Part shown: piece by piece, positions 1,518 to 28,516 of the stretch | How positions within the stretch are numbered: the first letter of the stretch is position 1 | Layout of the letters: the number at the start of each line of letters is the position of its first letter | From: a virus | Direction: 5' to 3' (one strand) | Length of the DNA stretch: 64,000 nt | IMG/VR virus record: IMGVR_UViG_3300018495_000103 | Program-made: the position numbers and the translations under genes | Notes under the pieces: generated by a model | The model's database searches: none | Told to the model about the DNA's origin: nothing | What the model saw: only the letters and a program-made list of their open reading frames with translations

Positions 1518-1741
1518 ATGTCAACTTCCTCCTCAAATTCGTATTCTAATTTGCCGGGAAGTTCACCCTCCCAGAATGTTGCATGACCATCGCAATCGGG
1601 ATTCTCACACTTATAAGGATATTGTGCTGGATAAGTAGTGAGACAAATGCCAGTGGGGATTAACTCCCCACCGCACTTATCACAAATTGCTCTGGTTGTA
1701 TAAATATTTTTTACCTTATATCGTTTAAGCATCTTCCTCAA
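1496..1741 (-). CDS. zinc-ribbon protein (81 aa)
   Basis: ORF track. CxxC...CxxC...C-D-C pattern. TAA stop. Overlaps gmk start and polymerase stop. Start may be a later Met. Confidence 0.4.
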   Translation of the reverse strand: MRKMLKRYKVKNIYTTRAICDKCGGELIPTGICLTTYPAQYPYKCENPDCDGHATFWEGELPGKLEYEFEEEVDICTKLLP

Positions 1742-4700
1742 TGCCTCCTTGATAACGAGAGTCTTTCAAAATCAATTCTCCATTAGGAAGAACTGCATCA
1801 ATTTTATATAGCTGGTGACCGCCCGTAGAAGCATATTTCTTAGACACGAAATCATCACCAGAACGAATACCAGTAACCACAATCATATTTCCACGATTAA
1901 ACCAGGATTTCTCCATAATCTTCTTCGTACCATCTGCTTGACGCTCAGAAATCTGCTTATCAAACATTGTGAAATATTCTTTTCTAAACTTGACATTTAC
2001 AACACCTGTTGTAGTCAAAATAGTTACCGTACTCTTTGTCTTATTCTTTGCAATGCAAGTGCCGCAGATACGATTCAGTTTAAAGATATGAATATCTTTG
2101 CCACCCTTTGTAAAAGTCTTTTCAATTACTGGGTCTTCTGGTAGACTATAAAAGTCTACAAAACCATATCTATCATTATTGATATGCTCCAACTCATGCT
2201 CGTGATAATAGAAACATAATACTTCCATTTCCCATGCGGAAATAGTTCCTTTAGCATATTTCTCCCAATCTTGCATAAAGATTTCAGTATTTAAAGCATC
2301 CAAGATAGCTTCCTTATCAGAGGCAATCCACTTTCTAAATACATCCATATGCTTCTGGTAGATATTATCCCAAGCCTTGGTTTTTACATACCAAGATAAG
2401 TTATCTGTTTCCATAATATCATCACATTCAATTTCATGTAAGAACGCAATCGCTCTTTCATCAAGACTATACATTCCTGCATATGTATACTTATCAGCTT
2501 TTGTAATTGCTTTTAAGTATCTGTTGAACTCATATACTCTACGAGCCATAATCTGTTCAGGAGTCTTTTCAGGCAGAAGATTATGTCTAATTAAACCACC
2601 CATATTCTGCAAAGTGATTCGACTCTTCTTATCACAAGTCTCCCAAATATACCAGGCCATAGTAAACTTTCTATCTTCCATACTATCAAAGGCTCCACCC
2701 TTGATTAGAGAAATCATAGCTTGCTTACCAGGTTTAACCTTATTCAAGAAGTCCTTGGGTGAACTATATGGTCTATTCGCAATGATTGCCGCAACCACAT
2801 CATCACCTACATTTAACATACCCTTTAGACCGAATAGAATTCGATTGTTTTCAACATCGGGAGCGAAACCGAACTTAGACTTATTAATGTCAGCTAAACT
2901 AACCTTAATGCCGGCGGCTTGGATGTCTCCAATCGCCTTTGCAATCTTACCATAATCGGTTGCCGCAGTTCTACGAATTTTCGCAGACTTATCGGGCAAG
3001 TCAATAAACTTAACTCCCTCTGCTAAATCTTGTGCTTCTGGAGCATAAATATCTACAATCTCTTCTTCACTATTATCTTCCAAAGAACCACTGTTAACAA
3101 TCAAACAAGCAGTATTCCAATAAATTGGATTGAAATTAATAACGAAATAAATAGACTGAATACCTACGAATGAGTAAGGTAGAGAGTGGTTCAAGCTAAA
3201 TGCATAACCCAACTGAGGTGCAATCGCATTCTCCCAGAAATAGTTTGCCACTCGAACGTCATCAAAGTTTCCATATACCTGCTCACGCAATTGAGGAATC
3301 TTACTCATTTGTTTCTTACCAACAATCTTTCTTGCATTGTTAGCTTCACCCAGAGTGAAACTAGCTACATCCATTAGAAGTTCCATCATCTGCTCCTGGA
3401 GAGCGCAACATCCCCAATACTGGTCACAATGCTTATGCATTAATGCTTTTTGTTCGGGAGTGAAGTTTGCTTTATCCATTTCTCGGTCGAAAACATCCAA
3501 ACCTTGATGCTGAATACGAACATATCTATCCTGTTGAGACTCTTTATCTTTTTCAGACATAAGTCTCATCATAGCGTTCGCCGCAGTCATCTCCATAGGA
3601 TTTTGAGGCTTTAATTTCTTCGCAATTGCCAAGCCGACGCCAGTACTGAACTGGAATACATCCAACACATCACCGGCCGCAAGATGGTCCCAAATGCGTT
3701 GGTCGCTTGTATCAATCACTTCTGGATGAATATACTTATTATAAAGGTCACGCAGACCCATTTTTTCAATTACATTATCTTCAACAAGTAACTCAAAACA
3801 TTTGATAATCTTATCAGAAATTTCAGTTACCAGGAAGTCATACTTGGTATCACCGGCGGCCTCAGCCTTATGCAGGTCATAACAAGTAATTAAATCTCCA
3901 CTTGGAGTTCTCATAAAACTTGCAGTTTCAAATGGGTCATCACCATATAGAATGACACCAGATGCGTGAGAGGAACGCTTATTAACCAATCCTTCAATGG
4001 ACATAATAATATCCAACAAACCAGGATAGTTGTTTACCTCACGTATGAACGGAGCCACGGGTCGTCTGTCTTTTTCTTCGTTTCCATAGACGACATCATT
4101 GATTGACCAAAGGAATCCTCGTTCCTGTGGCACCAGTGAAGACATGTATTGTGCGAGGTCGACATCGATTCCATCTGGGTAATCCTCGCTTCTATAACCG
4201 CGGCAAGCCGTGAGTATAGCTGATTTCGTACCCTCTGTTCCGAAGGTTGCAACCTGGACCAAACCAAGTTCTCCACGTTCTCTTCGAATTGCGTCAAAGA
4301 TTGCGGGTCGCTTTGATGGTGCAAGGTCAATGTCGATGTCGGGCAATTCGGCTCTTTCCTTGTTAAGGAAACGCCAATAAGGTAAGCCCCATCTAACTGG
4401 GTCGAGCTGGGTAATGCCCAAGAGGTAGTTAGACAGAAATCCTGTGGCCGAGCCTCGACCTGGGCCAACAATTGAGCCACATTCCCAGAATAGGTCGATA
4501 TAGTGTTTGAAGGTGTTAAAATAGGCGAACAAGCAGTCATCTAATTTCTCTCCAATATCTTTAATAACATCAGCCTCAGTCTCAAGACGAGTTAAGTATT
4601 CATCATATAATAATAAACCTTTTTCCTCTAAAGACTTTAGACACTCATTTATCCAATAACGCTCTTGAATATTATCGCTAGTTAAAAGTTCATTCAGTAA

Positions 4701-26414: not shown

Positions 26415-26628
26415 AATAAAATTCCTCCATATCTTTCAACATTTCATTGAATTTTTTACTTTCATCGGGATGTGCGGCTTTATATAAATTGACACTAGCC
26501 TCTGTCTTAAATGGGCCAATAACACTTTGAGGGCAATTTAATAGACAATATTCATCCATTAAATCTTGAGCTTGGATGATTTTATCATCGCCCAAATCCC
26601 AAAACCAATATCCATGATACTCAGACAT
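26398..26628 (-). CDS. hypothetical protein (76 aa)
   Basis: Track start at 26658 lies inside the GyrB gene. Met-11 at 26628 has a GGAGGG SD. Confidence 0.4.
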   Translation of the reverse strand: MSEYHGYWFWDLGDDKIIQAQDLMDEYCLLNCPQSVIGPFKTEASVNLYKAAHPDESKKFNEMLKDMEEFYYGECN

Positions 26629-28516
26629 CGATATTTGCCCTCCAAGCGTTATCTTCAATAAACTTCTTACGAGGAGTTACAGACTCACCCATTAAGCTCA
26701 TAAAGACATTTGCCACGGCGGCCGCATCTTCCATGGTAATCTGCTTTAAAGTACGAGTCTCCGCACTCATAACAGTTTCAGCCATTTCATCAGGGTCCAT
26801 TTCACCTAGACCCTTCATACGACCAAGTTCAAATTTCTTACTATTGGTTTTGCGGAATTCTTCAAGAGCAGCATCATCCTTTAAATACTGGATTTTAGTT
26901 CCAATAGTTGCTTTATATAGTGGAGGTACAGCGGCATAAATATATCCCTTATCCAGTAGGTCTGGACAGAACTTCCAAATAAAAGTTAGGAATAGAACAC
27001 GAATATGAGAACCATCAACATCAGCATCTGCGGTAATGATGAATTTACCATATCTCAACTTAGTTTCATCAACGATAATCTTACCGTCCTTAACTTCTAA
27101 ACCAAAAGCATCAACCATACCGCTGATTTCTTTATTCTGAAGAGCCTTATGTAGGTCGCACTTCAAAACATTTAGCGGCTTACCACGAAGTTGGAATACT
27201 GCTTGAGTACCTCTGTCACGAGCTTCAATTGTTGTACCTGCAGCAGATTTACCCTCAACAATAAAGACTTCACATTTGTGACGCTCTTTAGAGCTGGCAT
27301 CCGCAAGTACGTCAGGCATAATCACACGACGCTTGTTGTCAACTTTACGAACGGTTTCCTTGGCCTTTTTAGCTTTTTCACGGGCTGCACGTGCCAAAAG
27401 TGCTTTATCAACAATGGCTTTTGCGTCTTTGGGATTTGCGTCGAGCCATACTCGGATTTCACGGGCGGTTAAACGCTGAACCGCAGTTCTTGCTTCACTA
27501 CTGGAAAGAACATCTTTCGTCTGGCCGGAGAAAACAGGGTCAGGCATAATGAAGGATAGAACCAGAACCAAACCTTCCTTCAATTCTTCACCAGTAATAT
27601 TAGCATCTTTCTCCTTTAGGAGCTTATTATCACGAGCATAGTCATTCATAGTTTGCGTGAGTGCGGTTCTAAAACCGGTTAAGTGGGTTCCCGCACTATT
27701 AGGAATAGAGTTGGTATAGAGCTTATACATATCAGTATAAGTATCATTATACTGCATAGCAATCTTAACACCAATTCTATCTTCCATATTTTCAGTATAG
27801 AATACGGAAGTTACCTTATTTTTATCTTTATTTAAATCATTGATATAATCTCGAATACCATTTTGAGAAGTGATAACTTCTTCTTCTTTATCTTCATATT
27901 TGAAGTTAAACACCATACCAGGAGATAGATAAGCTAGCTCTTGGATTTGTTTCTTTAGTGGGGCATATTCAAGACGAATTCCTTCTTTGAAGATAGTCTC
28001 ATCGGGCTTGAAACTGATTGTAGTTCCGTGTAGTCCCTTTGTAAAAGGTTGCTCTTCATAAGATTTCAATTCACCTTTTTCAAAAACTGCGTAAGCAGAT
28101 TTTCCATCACGCACAGATTCAACAGCAAAATAAGAAGATAGAGCATTTGTAGCCTTGGCACCGACACCGTTCATACCACCAGAAGTGTTATAACCAGTTT
28201 TACCATCACTATCAAATTTTGCGCCTGTATGAAGTTTTGTATAAACATTCACCAGAGTTTCACTACCATCTTCAGCTTTTCCAAACGGAACACCACGACC
28301 ATTATCTGCGATACGAATAACTCCATCGGAGCCAACCGTAATAATACAGTTAGTGCAATGTCCGTTTAAGTATTCATCAACTGCGTTAGAAATGATTTCG
28401 AGTGTGATGTGTCTAACACCATCAGGTCCAACTGAACCGATATACATACCTGGACGTAGTCGGATAGCTTCGATACCTTCTAGTGTTTTTATGTCTTTTA
28501 CACCATAATCTGACAT
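26621..28516 (-). CDS. gyrB: type IIA topoisomerase subunit B (GyrB/ParE-like)
   Basis: GHKL ATPase N-terminus (LRPGMYIGS), TOPRIM (EVFIVEGKSAAG). GAAAGGAG RBS and conserved promoter upstream. TGA stop. Confidence 0.9.
   Translation of the reverse strand: MSDYGVKDIKTLEGIEAIRLRPGMYIGSVGPDGVRHITLEIISNAVDEYLNGHCTNCIITVGSDGVIRIADNGRGVPFGKAEDGSETLVNVYTKLHTGAKFDSDGKTGYNTSGGMNGVGAKATNALSSYFAVESVRDGKSAYAVFEKGELKSYEEQPFTKGLHGTTISFKPDETIFKEGIRLEYAPLKKQIQELAYLSPGMVFNFKYEDKEEEVITSQNGIRDYINDLNKDKNKVTSVFYTENMEDRIGVKIAMQYNDTYTDMYKLYTNSIPNSAGTHLTGFRTALTQTMNDYARDNKLLKEKDANITGEELKEGLVLVLSFIMPDPVFSGQTKDVLSSSEARTAVQRLTAREIRVWLDANPKDAKAIVDKALLARAAREKAKKAKETVRKVDNKRRVIMPDVLADASSKERHKCEVFIVEGKSAAGTTIEARDRGTQAVFQLRGKPLNVLKCDLHKALQNKEISGMVDAFGLEVKDGKIIVDETKLRYGKFIITADADVDGSHIRVLFLTFIWKFCPDLLDKGYIYAAVPPLYKATIGTKIQYLKDDAALEEFRKTNSKKFELGRMKGLGEMDPDEMAETVMSAETRTLKQITMEDAAAVANVFMSLMGESVTPRKKFIEDNAWRANIDV

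Follow-up and report, generated by a model that had tools for sequence, protein, structure and literature searches.

We analyzed a 64,000-nt stretch of viral DNA, IMG/VR record IMGVR_UViG_3300018495_000103 (here, the window), in which in-frame TAG codons are missing from the genes of the replication machinery and present in several of the genes around them. When open reading frames (ORFs) were called with TAA and TGA as the sole stops, 93% of the minus strand was coding, and all of the genes lay on that strand. Gene identities were assigned by Pfam or PHROGs; where small ORFs begin is uncertain. In order of rising coordinates, the window encodes an NrdD fragment, guanylate kinase (gmk) and a DnaE-type DNA polymerase (Pol) that is 38% identical to YorL of phage SPbeta across 99% of its length, followed by an SF1 helicase, a lysozyme-like protein, RecJ, primase and DnaB. 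YorH-like, AAA_24 and YorF-like proteins, dihydrofolate reductase (DHFR), ThyA and a coiled-coil GIY-YIG protein come next, and then LigA, GyrA, RNase H, GyrB, a holin, a small membrane protein, an endolysin and a PIN-PhoH protein. The region from 34 to 64 kb contains genes for an SPFH/flotillin protein, phosphoesterases, PNK, NAD-salvage enzymes, Sir2, a YqeY-like protein, an MVP-shoulder protein, RNA ligase, a sigma factor and a Thg1-like enzyme. The protein encoded at 63145-63984, whose gene runs off the window end, matched no record. In the window, 25 TAG codons stand beside 607 conventional glutamine (Gln) codons (252 CAA and 355 CAG).

To view the window in a wider context, we walked along IMGVR_UViG_3300024268_000034 and one JGI contig, which joined without conflicts into a 128.5-kb composite covering the genome except for about 45 kb that includes the genes for capsid, portal and terminase. 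In this composite, the polymerase arm is met by a second, oppositely oriented arm that converges on it and bears SPbeta-like tail genes. Relatives of the phage have been binned with metagenome-assembled genomes of Acutalibacteraceae, Clostridium and Lachnospiraceae. The window probably represents the early/middle arm of a phage, approximately 170 to 200 kb in size, that infects a Clostridia host in the gut and whose replication module and tail genes are SPbeta-like. No near-identical DNA record was present in the phage collection searched, and inspection of the 128 kb revealed no gene for a release factor or for a tRNA synthetase.

Comparison of translated genes showed TAG to be a sense codon for Gln. 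The TAGs of gmk, RecJ, DHFR, GIY-YIG and PhoH are sense codons because Pfam matches cross them; in gmk, the Guanylate_kin match (residues 3 to 176) spans all four. Homology likewise continues across the TAGs of the tail genes and the tape measure gene. Columns in GIY-YIG orthologues alternate between TAG (X) and Q (YVGXA/YVGQA, WKXH/WKQH and RIXL/RIQL), and across 23 gene families the residue most commonly found opposite TAG was Q (29%), with E next (13%). The PhoH TAG lies in a GD..x.D stretch, at a position that is Gln in the PhoH motif. TAG served as the terminator at only 16 of 966 gene ends across relatives. One doubtful case is in the window, where the single TAG of the metallophosphoesterase gene falls beyond the Pfam match (which ends at residue 158) and could be a genuine stop.

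Within the window, ARAGORN detected no tRNA genes. About 6.1 kb past its end, however, the same strand carries two tRNA(CUA) genes in tandem, which supplies the suppressor tRNA that the original prediction had invoked. The contig that bears them matched the window with 0 mismatches over a 4,883-nt overlap. The pair belongs to an array of ten tRNAs, all on that strand, and has Rfam tRNA scores of 47 and 54 bits, cloverleaf folds and Gln-like acceptor ends. The second gene is 97 nt long, and its variable region includes a stem-loop of about 25 nt, a long extra arm. In a relative with 81% Pol identity, the syntenic array has one tRNA(CUA) only, and no tRNAs were found close to the polymerase gene in 40 relatives. 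The classical suppressor supE of Escherichia coli is a tRNA-Gln with a CUA anticodon that inserts Gln at TAG in competition with release factor 1 (RF1). The tRNAs described here differ from supE in being phage encoded and tandemly duplicated, with a long extra arm in one copy; the first is 75% similar to E. coli tRNA-Gln. Two side observations touch on these tRNAs. A partial match to OLE RNA (RF01071, model positions 439 to 592) lies inside the array; it scored 53.5 bits against a gathering score of 50 and may be spurious. In addition, and as pure speculation, the YqeY-like (GatB-related) protein might bear on how the suppressor becomes a Gln-tRNA if the host has no GlnRS.

The eight replisome genes (encoding Pol, the SF1 helicase, DnaB, the primase DnaG, LigA, GyrA, GyrB and RNase H) had been reported to lack in-frame TAG in the original prediction, and our recount gave zero in 8 of 8. 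It also gave zero for the flotillin, the MVP homolog, the NAD enzymes and the RNA ligase, as claimed. The counts for gmk, RecJ, DHFR, PhoH and the metallophosphoesterase lie within the one to eight TAGs stated for accessory genes, and the GIY-YIG gene has nine rather than eight (Table 1). The range of 1725-28516 given for the pattern was too narrow: the PhoH, metallophosphoesterase, flotillin, MVP, NAD and RNA ligase genes fall outside it. Together, the replisome genes contain 135 Gln codons and no TAG, and the remaining early arm has 33 TAGs in 591. This difference was significant against the other early genes (Fisher's exact test, P = 0.002), with the 9-TAG gene left out (P = 0.008) and against immediate neighbors only (P = 0.0006). 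The allocation of TAG among genes was also overdispersed in both arms (simulations, P < 0.0002). One alternative is that the 25 TAGs of the window missed the long genes by luck. It has in its favor that, without the 9-TAG gene, only about three to six TAGs would be expected in the eight replisome genes, and that the grouping was chosen after the data had been seen. The Fisher and overdispersion tests argue against it, and the comparison of relatives described below refutes it; we consider chance negligible as an explanation.

Table 1. Features of the window and of the wider genome. Coordinates without a prefix are those of the window; L numbers are our labels for other sequences.
Feature	Coordinates	Strand	In-frame TAG	Remarks
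Guanylate kinase (gmk)	948-1517	-	4	codons 20, 42, 60 and 145; 4/9 Gln codons
DnaE-type DNA polymerase, SPbeta YorL-like	1725-5687	-	0	1320 aa; 20 CAA, 19 CAG
SF1 (PIF1/UvrD-like) helicase	5752-6942	-	0	at most 8 TAG in heavily recoded relatives
RecJ-like exonuclease	8707-10452	-	2	DHH domain match crosses a TAG
DNA primase	10822-11925	-	0	phrog_47, 7.7e-35
DnaB helicase	12304-13845	-	0	
Dihydrofolate reductase	16980-17477	-	1	DHFR_1 match, residues 1-163, crosses TAG
Membrane anchor, coiled coil and GIY-YIG nuclease	18660-19652	-	9	19 Gln codons
Terminator hairpin, 12 bp	19666-19692			
LigA, NAD-dependent DNA ligase	20347-22338	-	0	
GyrA	22661-25036	-	0	
RNase H	25345-25821	-	0	
GyrB	26621-28516	-	0	
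Lysis cassette	28658-31900	-	0	TAG-free throughout
Holin	28658-29062	-	0	phrog_13712, 1e-35
Small membrane protein	29078-29404	-	0	1 TAG in one relative
Multidomain endolysin	29567-31900	-	0	
PIN-PhoH protein	31976-33226	-	1	codon 370; PhoH match, residues 217-411, crosses TAG
Accessory island	34118-64000	-	5	~10,150 codons; CAG and CTG preferred
Flotillin/SPFH protein	34118-35626	-	0	CAG at all 25 Gln codons
Metallophosphoesterase	36129-36842	-	1	codon 196 of 237
NAD enzymes	38787-46512	-	0	
YqeY-like protein	45115-45633			
MVP-shoulder protein, also MVP repeat domains	47373-49889	-	0	CAG at all 36 Gln codons
RNA ligase	50632-52050	-	0	
YorH-like gene and several small ORFs			1 each	
Predicted sigma-A-type promoter ahead of Pol	5721-5749			
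Predicted promoter ahead of LigA	22364-22392			12/12 consensus
Predicted promoter ahead of GyrB	28561-28589			
Further predicted promoters, among others	37824-37852, 39713-39741, 43880-43908, 47306-47334, 53606-53634, 54829-54857, 57415-57443, 58822-58850			
tRNA(CUA) pair	~70129-70300 (L110 2043-2214)			
First suppressor tRNA	L110 2043-2117			
Second suppressor tRNA	L110 2118-2214			
OLE RNA partial match	L110 3889-3972			
Tail tube	L161 767-1819		0	CAG at 11/12 Gln codons
Tape measure	L161 3740-13087		51	3,115 aa
Tail gene			17	2,547 aa
Baseplate-like genes			5 each	
Fiber-like genes			3-8	
2,683-aa structural gene			0	
TAG-free block around 2,683-aa gene	-33400 to -20700, composite (L106 3412-13318, L095 3637-6177)		0	
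tRNA with four-base anticodon, remoter phages	L133 6607-6705, L134 1483-1581, L135 6142-6240			99 nt
tRNA(tta) and tRNA(cta), remoter phage	L148 9880-9954, L148 14149-14224			

Replacement of C by T in the first codon position is also synonymous in leucine (Leu), and we therefore used TTG versus CTG as a control. In the replisome genes, TTG/(TTG + CTG) was 0.75, yet no TAG stood beside 64 CAG codons. In TAG-bearing late genes, the Leu ratio was 0.94 and TAG/(TAG + CAG) was 0.56; TAG was underused relative to the Leu control in every gene class. Among genes with at least five CAG and TAG codons in total, 33 had a TAG fraction of zero, and the others ranged from about 0.1 to 1.0. Because the Leu control stays TTG-rich and the genes form two groups, it is TAG specifically that is avoided, and individual genes do so almost completely or not at all. 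General codon bias was rejected as the cause in the replisome, since the G+C content at third codon positions (GC3, approximately 0.32) resembles that of TAG-bearing neighbors and TTG is freely used. The emphasis on long genes in the original prediction did not hold up either: length and TAG share were uncorrelated in the early arm (Spearman rho, 0.02), and there are 17 TAGs in the late gene of 2,547 aa and 51 in that of 3,115 aa. Protein conservation had no clear relation to TAG. As a separate observation on context in the composite, C preceded in-frame TAG in 7% of cases, compared with 15 to 26% for CAA and CAG, consistent with avoidance of the tetranucleotide CTAG.

Comparison among relatives provided a stronger test. 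We collected 78 IMG/VR loci with Pol identities of 45 to 100%, together with nine LigA loci; family counts use the 63 distinct Pol sequences. The relatives are not phylogenetically independent, a problem that counting distinct alignment columns mitigates. Pol had 7 TAGs in 2,923 Gln codons (0.2%), compared with 844 in 8,999 (9.4%) in 21 neighboring families (P = 2e-95), and 6 of its 314 distinct Gln-bearing columns contained TAG, versus 290 of 1,378 in the neighbors (P = 5e-21). The TAG share of Gln codons was 1.4% in primase and 2.3% in DnaB, which with Pol have the three lowest shares among functionally assigned families (one 81-aa ORF has none); it was about 4% in NrdD, NrdG and dUTPase, 6% in the SF1 helicase, 9% in gmk, 14% in RecJ and, at the top of the range, 40% in a RuvC-like resolvase. 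LigA, GyrA, GyrB and RNase H had no TAG in nine of nine relatives as well. TAG was gained independently at 49 columns in RecJ, which carries up to 14 TAGs in relatives, and at 38 in the RuvC-like gene, while no Pol sequence had more than two. Because Pol stays free, or nearly free, of TAG in 63 relatives and its neighbors gain TAG dozens of times, these counts show sustained codon-specific selection rather than drift. The distribution of TAG by gene class, for which the original prediction had proposed a test against chance, is thus nonrandom both in the early arm and across the family. Separately, in seven relatives (L058, L063, L068, L070, L072, L083 and L084) the pol match extends over about 5 kb rather than 3.9 kb; the additional 1 kb or so may represent inserted elements, for example inteins or introns that encode homing endonucleases.

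The original prediction had also offered recent recoding with purging of essential genes, and this stood in part. In its broader form, the explanation is historical: the lineage would be a recombination mosaic at an early point in recoding, with the process still under way, so that TAG tracks the time a gene has resided in a recoded background and core genes lag. Relatives of similar Pol identity carry anywhere from 0 to 57 TAGs per 24-kb pol locus, and the accessory island is compositionally foreign and nearly TAG-free. TAG makes up only about 4.5% of early-arm Gln codons, and Borges et al. (bioRxiv 10.1101/2021.08.26.457843) reported rapid code change among close relatives. A further case is the giant 2,683-aa structural gene, whose homologs carry 43 TAGs in relative L108, 7 in L109 and none in L107. 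The TAG-free block around it stands out from its neighbors (P = 5e-8) and has codon usage unlike theirs; its TAG-free state looks historical. The alternative that this gene is inherently closed to TAG was rejected, given the 43 TAGs in one homolog. Other findings speak against this explanation. Pol has remained almost without TAG over the whole range of identity while RecJ and the RuvC-like gene acquired it repeatedly, and the mutation pressure seen in the Leu control would have put TAG into replisome genes. The GIY-YIG gene is TAG-rich in all lineages examined (3 to 12 TAGs in eight relatives with a full-length copy, with 10, 12 and 3 in examples), at sites that are partly lineage specific, hence partly independent, and aligned with Q in orthologs. 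In the LigA set, moreover, the presence of TAG does not track protein conservation. We regard history as an unlikely explanation of the overall skew.

The structural arm uses TAG much more heavily than the early arm (17.2% versus 4.5% of Gln codons; P = 2e-15). Its tape measure gene, about 1.9 kb downstream of the tail tube gene, was broken into more than 25 fragments in one public standard-code annotation, and a fragment of it had no match in a metagenome-contig scan. At 90% read-through, 51 TAGs would leave a yield of 0.9^51, or 0.5%. Because the tape measure bears 51 TAGs and the 2,547-aa tail gene 17, late suppression must reach at least about 95 to 98% per codon. With late suppression near complete, avoidance in the replisome is not due to a permanently poor suppressor, which favors a phase of inefficient decoding early in infection over a lasting cost.

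The same arm bears on an explanation by efficiency or cost alone, without timing, in which competition with RF1 purges TAG from abundant or truncation-sensitive proteins and leaves it in low-copy ones (tape measure, fibers, baseplate and nucleases). The abundant tail tube lacks TAG and is dominated by CAG, both here and in a 93%-identical relative, while its neighbors here carry 5, 9 and 51 TAGs. Other genes that use CAG only (AAA_24, YorF-like, flotillin and MVP) are TAG-free, the virion genes with TAG encode low-copy components, and the underuse of TAG relative to the Leu control in every class points the same way. Against this, an essential 3,115-aa protein with 51 TAGs would be produced at less than 0.5% if read-through were 90%; near-complete late suppression leaves little cost to avoid. 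The replisome genes are not codon optimized (71 CAA versus 64 CAG, with the low GC3 given above) and yet have zero TAG. Weak-termination contexts after TAG were not enriched, and TAG had no 5' positional bias. Efficiency alone seems to us improbable.

Predicted transcription signals bear on the order of expression. A predicted sigma-A-type promoter, TTGATTTTTATAAAAAAATATGWTATAAT followed by ATATAT, occurs in 27 near-identical copies on the coding strand of the early arm, frequently after a terminator hairpin. It precedes the genes for Pol, LigA, GyrB and the MVP protein, and six copies lie in the tRNA region. The 50.7 kb of the structural arm has a single intergenic copy, upstream of the 2,547-aa tail gene. 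Because of that copy, the contrast between an early arm with such promoters and a late arm without them is not a clean one. The window also includes the sigma factor gene noted above.

From these features we propose, with middling confidence, that the replisome genes need to be translated before suppressor tRNA builds up and that the TAG-bearing genes follow. At the start of infection there would be no suppressor, and host RF1 would read TAG as a stop. Genes needed at that point (the replisome and accessory "take-over" genes), most of them behind host sigma-A-type promoters, would have to be free of TAG. Suppressor tRNA would accumulate from early promoters and probably also through rising genome copy number, after which TAG would become an efficient Gln codon and TAG-bearing genes would be made at full length. 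The later-made set would consist mostly of tail, baseplate and tape measure genes, plus the GIY-YIG, RuvC-like resolvase, RecJ and gmk genes of the early arm. The results above show how TAG is read, that the phage encodes the tRNAs, and that the skew is specific to certain genes and conserved among relatives; the temporal order and the action of TAG as a translational gate are inferred, with promoter type as the basis for timing.

The original prediction had read the pattern as amber suppression switched on during infection. What supports it is that TAG encodes Gln, that the phage has its own tRNA(CUA) pair, and that the replisome is purged of TAG while late tail genes are rich in it. Several findings weigh against it. 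The holin and endolysin are TAG-free, so lack of TAG is not the same as early expression, and the tail tube and the 2,683-aa block are structural genes without TAG. The GIY-YIG, gmk and RecJ genes, all rich in TAG, are scattered among the TAG-free genes of the replisome along one strand and form no separate module. Heavily recoded relatives have two to eight TAGs in DnaB, primase and the SF1 helicase and one or two in Pol; the requirement is therefore quantitative rather than absolute. Neither the base after TAG nor the position of TAG within the gene gave a signal (P = 0.18 and 0.38, respectively). Finally, the predicted promoters of the suppressor tRNAs are of the host-type early class that also serves the replisome, which means that the delay could be brief and any switch would be gradual.

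The placement of TAG in the early arm raises another possibility, which we hold only tentatively and think less probable than the timing model: TAG may act as a gene-by-gene lock on potentially self-damaging DNA enzymes, with a second use in low-copy tail parts, and not as a gate on lysis. The locked genes would be those for GIY-YIG, with its nine TAGs, the RuvC-like resolvase, with its 40% share family-wide, and RecJ, which are embedded among replisome genes and possibly cotranscribed with them. The lock would be released once suppressor tRNA and phage DNA copy number had risen. If true, code-switch regulation would exist in a variant form whose targets are nucleases and virion stoichiometry instead of lysis timing. 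As an observation on the same gene, the GIY-YIG ORF starts 13 nt past a terminator hairpin and has no recognizable Shine-Dalgarno sequence, giving three damping layers: TAGs, hairpin and lack of a ribosome-binding site.

The timing model is that of Borges et al. (bioRxiv 10.1101/2021.08.26.457843, later in Nat Microbiol 2022), and the pattern has already been described for other recoded phages. Their alternatively coded gut phages include crAss-like, Lak, Jade, Sapphire and Agate phages; crAss-like and Agate phages keep their replication machinery in standard code, recoding favors an intron endonuclease, the code is labile among close relatives, and Firmicutes-infecting clades of 150 to 210 kb exist (10.1101/2021.08.26.457843). 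The phage studied here shares with them phage suppressor tRNAs, recoding of only part of the genes, a recoded endonuclease gene embedded in early genes and, presumably, a standard-code host. As in their model, structural genes are TAG enriched and replication genes remain compatible with standard code. Its likeness to Jade, Sapphire and Agate lies in genome size (150 to 210 kb) and Firmicutes hosts. It differs in the TAG-rich early-arm GIY-YIG, RuvC-like resolvase, RecJ and gmk genes, in showing no release factor or tRNA synthetase gene within the 128 kb and in a duplicated suppressor with an unusual extra arm in one copy. A further difference counts against the timing model: lysis genes are the most strongly recoded in their phages, whereas the holin, small membrane protein and endolysin are TAG-free here.

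The gut phage phAss-1 (proposed Phassvirus, OQ749652) is approximately 136 kb long and reads TAG as Gln; TAG interrupts 41 of its 147 ORFs, and it encodes three tRNA-Sup(CTA) and no dedicated synthetase (Babkin et al. 2023, PMC10607447). Its terminase, portal and tape measure genes are reported to be recoded, and the sections consulted report no analysis of replisome avoidance (PMC10607447). Among GenBank phages it provides one of the best matches to Pol, at only 38% identity. In crAss-like phages, TAG reportedly encodes Gln largely in late genes, suppressor tRNAs are present and code 15 has been validated by metaproteomics (Yutin et al. 2021, PMC7886860; Peters et al. 2022, PMC9523058). Those phages form an unrelated lineage (Crassvirales, with Bacteroidota hosts) and have another replication module. 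Bacillus phage SPbeta resembles the phage studied here in its YorL-type polymerase (38%) and in YorF, YorH, YomU (the tube), YomV, YomW and YomO, which were matched by Pfam on the same contigs. It differs in its standard code, temperate lifestyle and Bacillus host, and the 128 kb examined for the present phage showed no integrase gene.

What sets this case apart is the TAG-free state of the lysis genes, the presence of nuclease TAGs among replisome genes and the duplicated suppressor. These SPbeta-like Clostridia phages, with relatives at varied stages of recoding, provide a well-resolved case of uneven use of a private code. The family offers natural contrasts for the view of recoding as a timer, including one gene with 0, 7 or 43 TAGs and a set of unrecoded lysis genes. 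Standard-code gene callers shatter such genomes.

Two minor observations concern gene content beyond the replisome. The accessory island has a G+C content of 44 to 49%, compared with 38%, and contains an NAD-salvage set (NAMPT, NadE, NMNAT, PRPP synthetase and Sir2) and an RNA-repair set (PNK, RNA ligase, Thg1-like enzyme, a nucleotidyltransferase and DUF2828). In three remoter phages, ARAGORN predicted a 99-nt tRNA with a four-base anticodon (taaa), and a fourth encodes a tRNA(tta) and a tRNA(cta).

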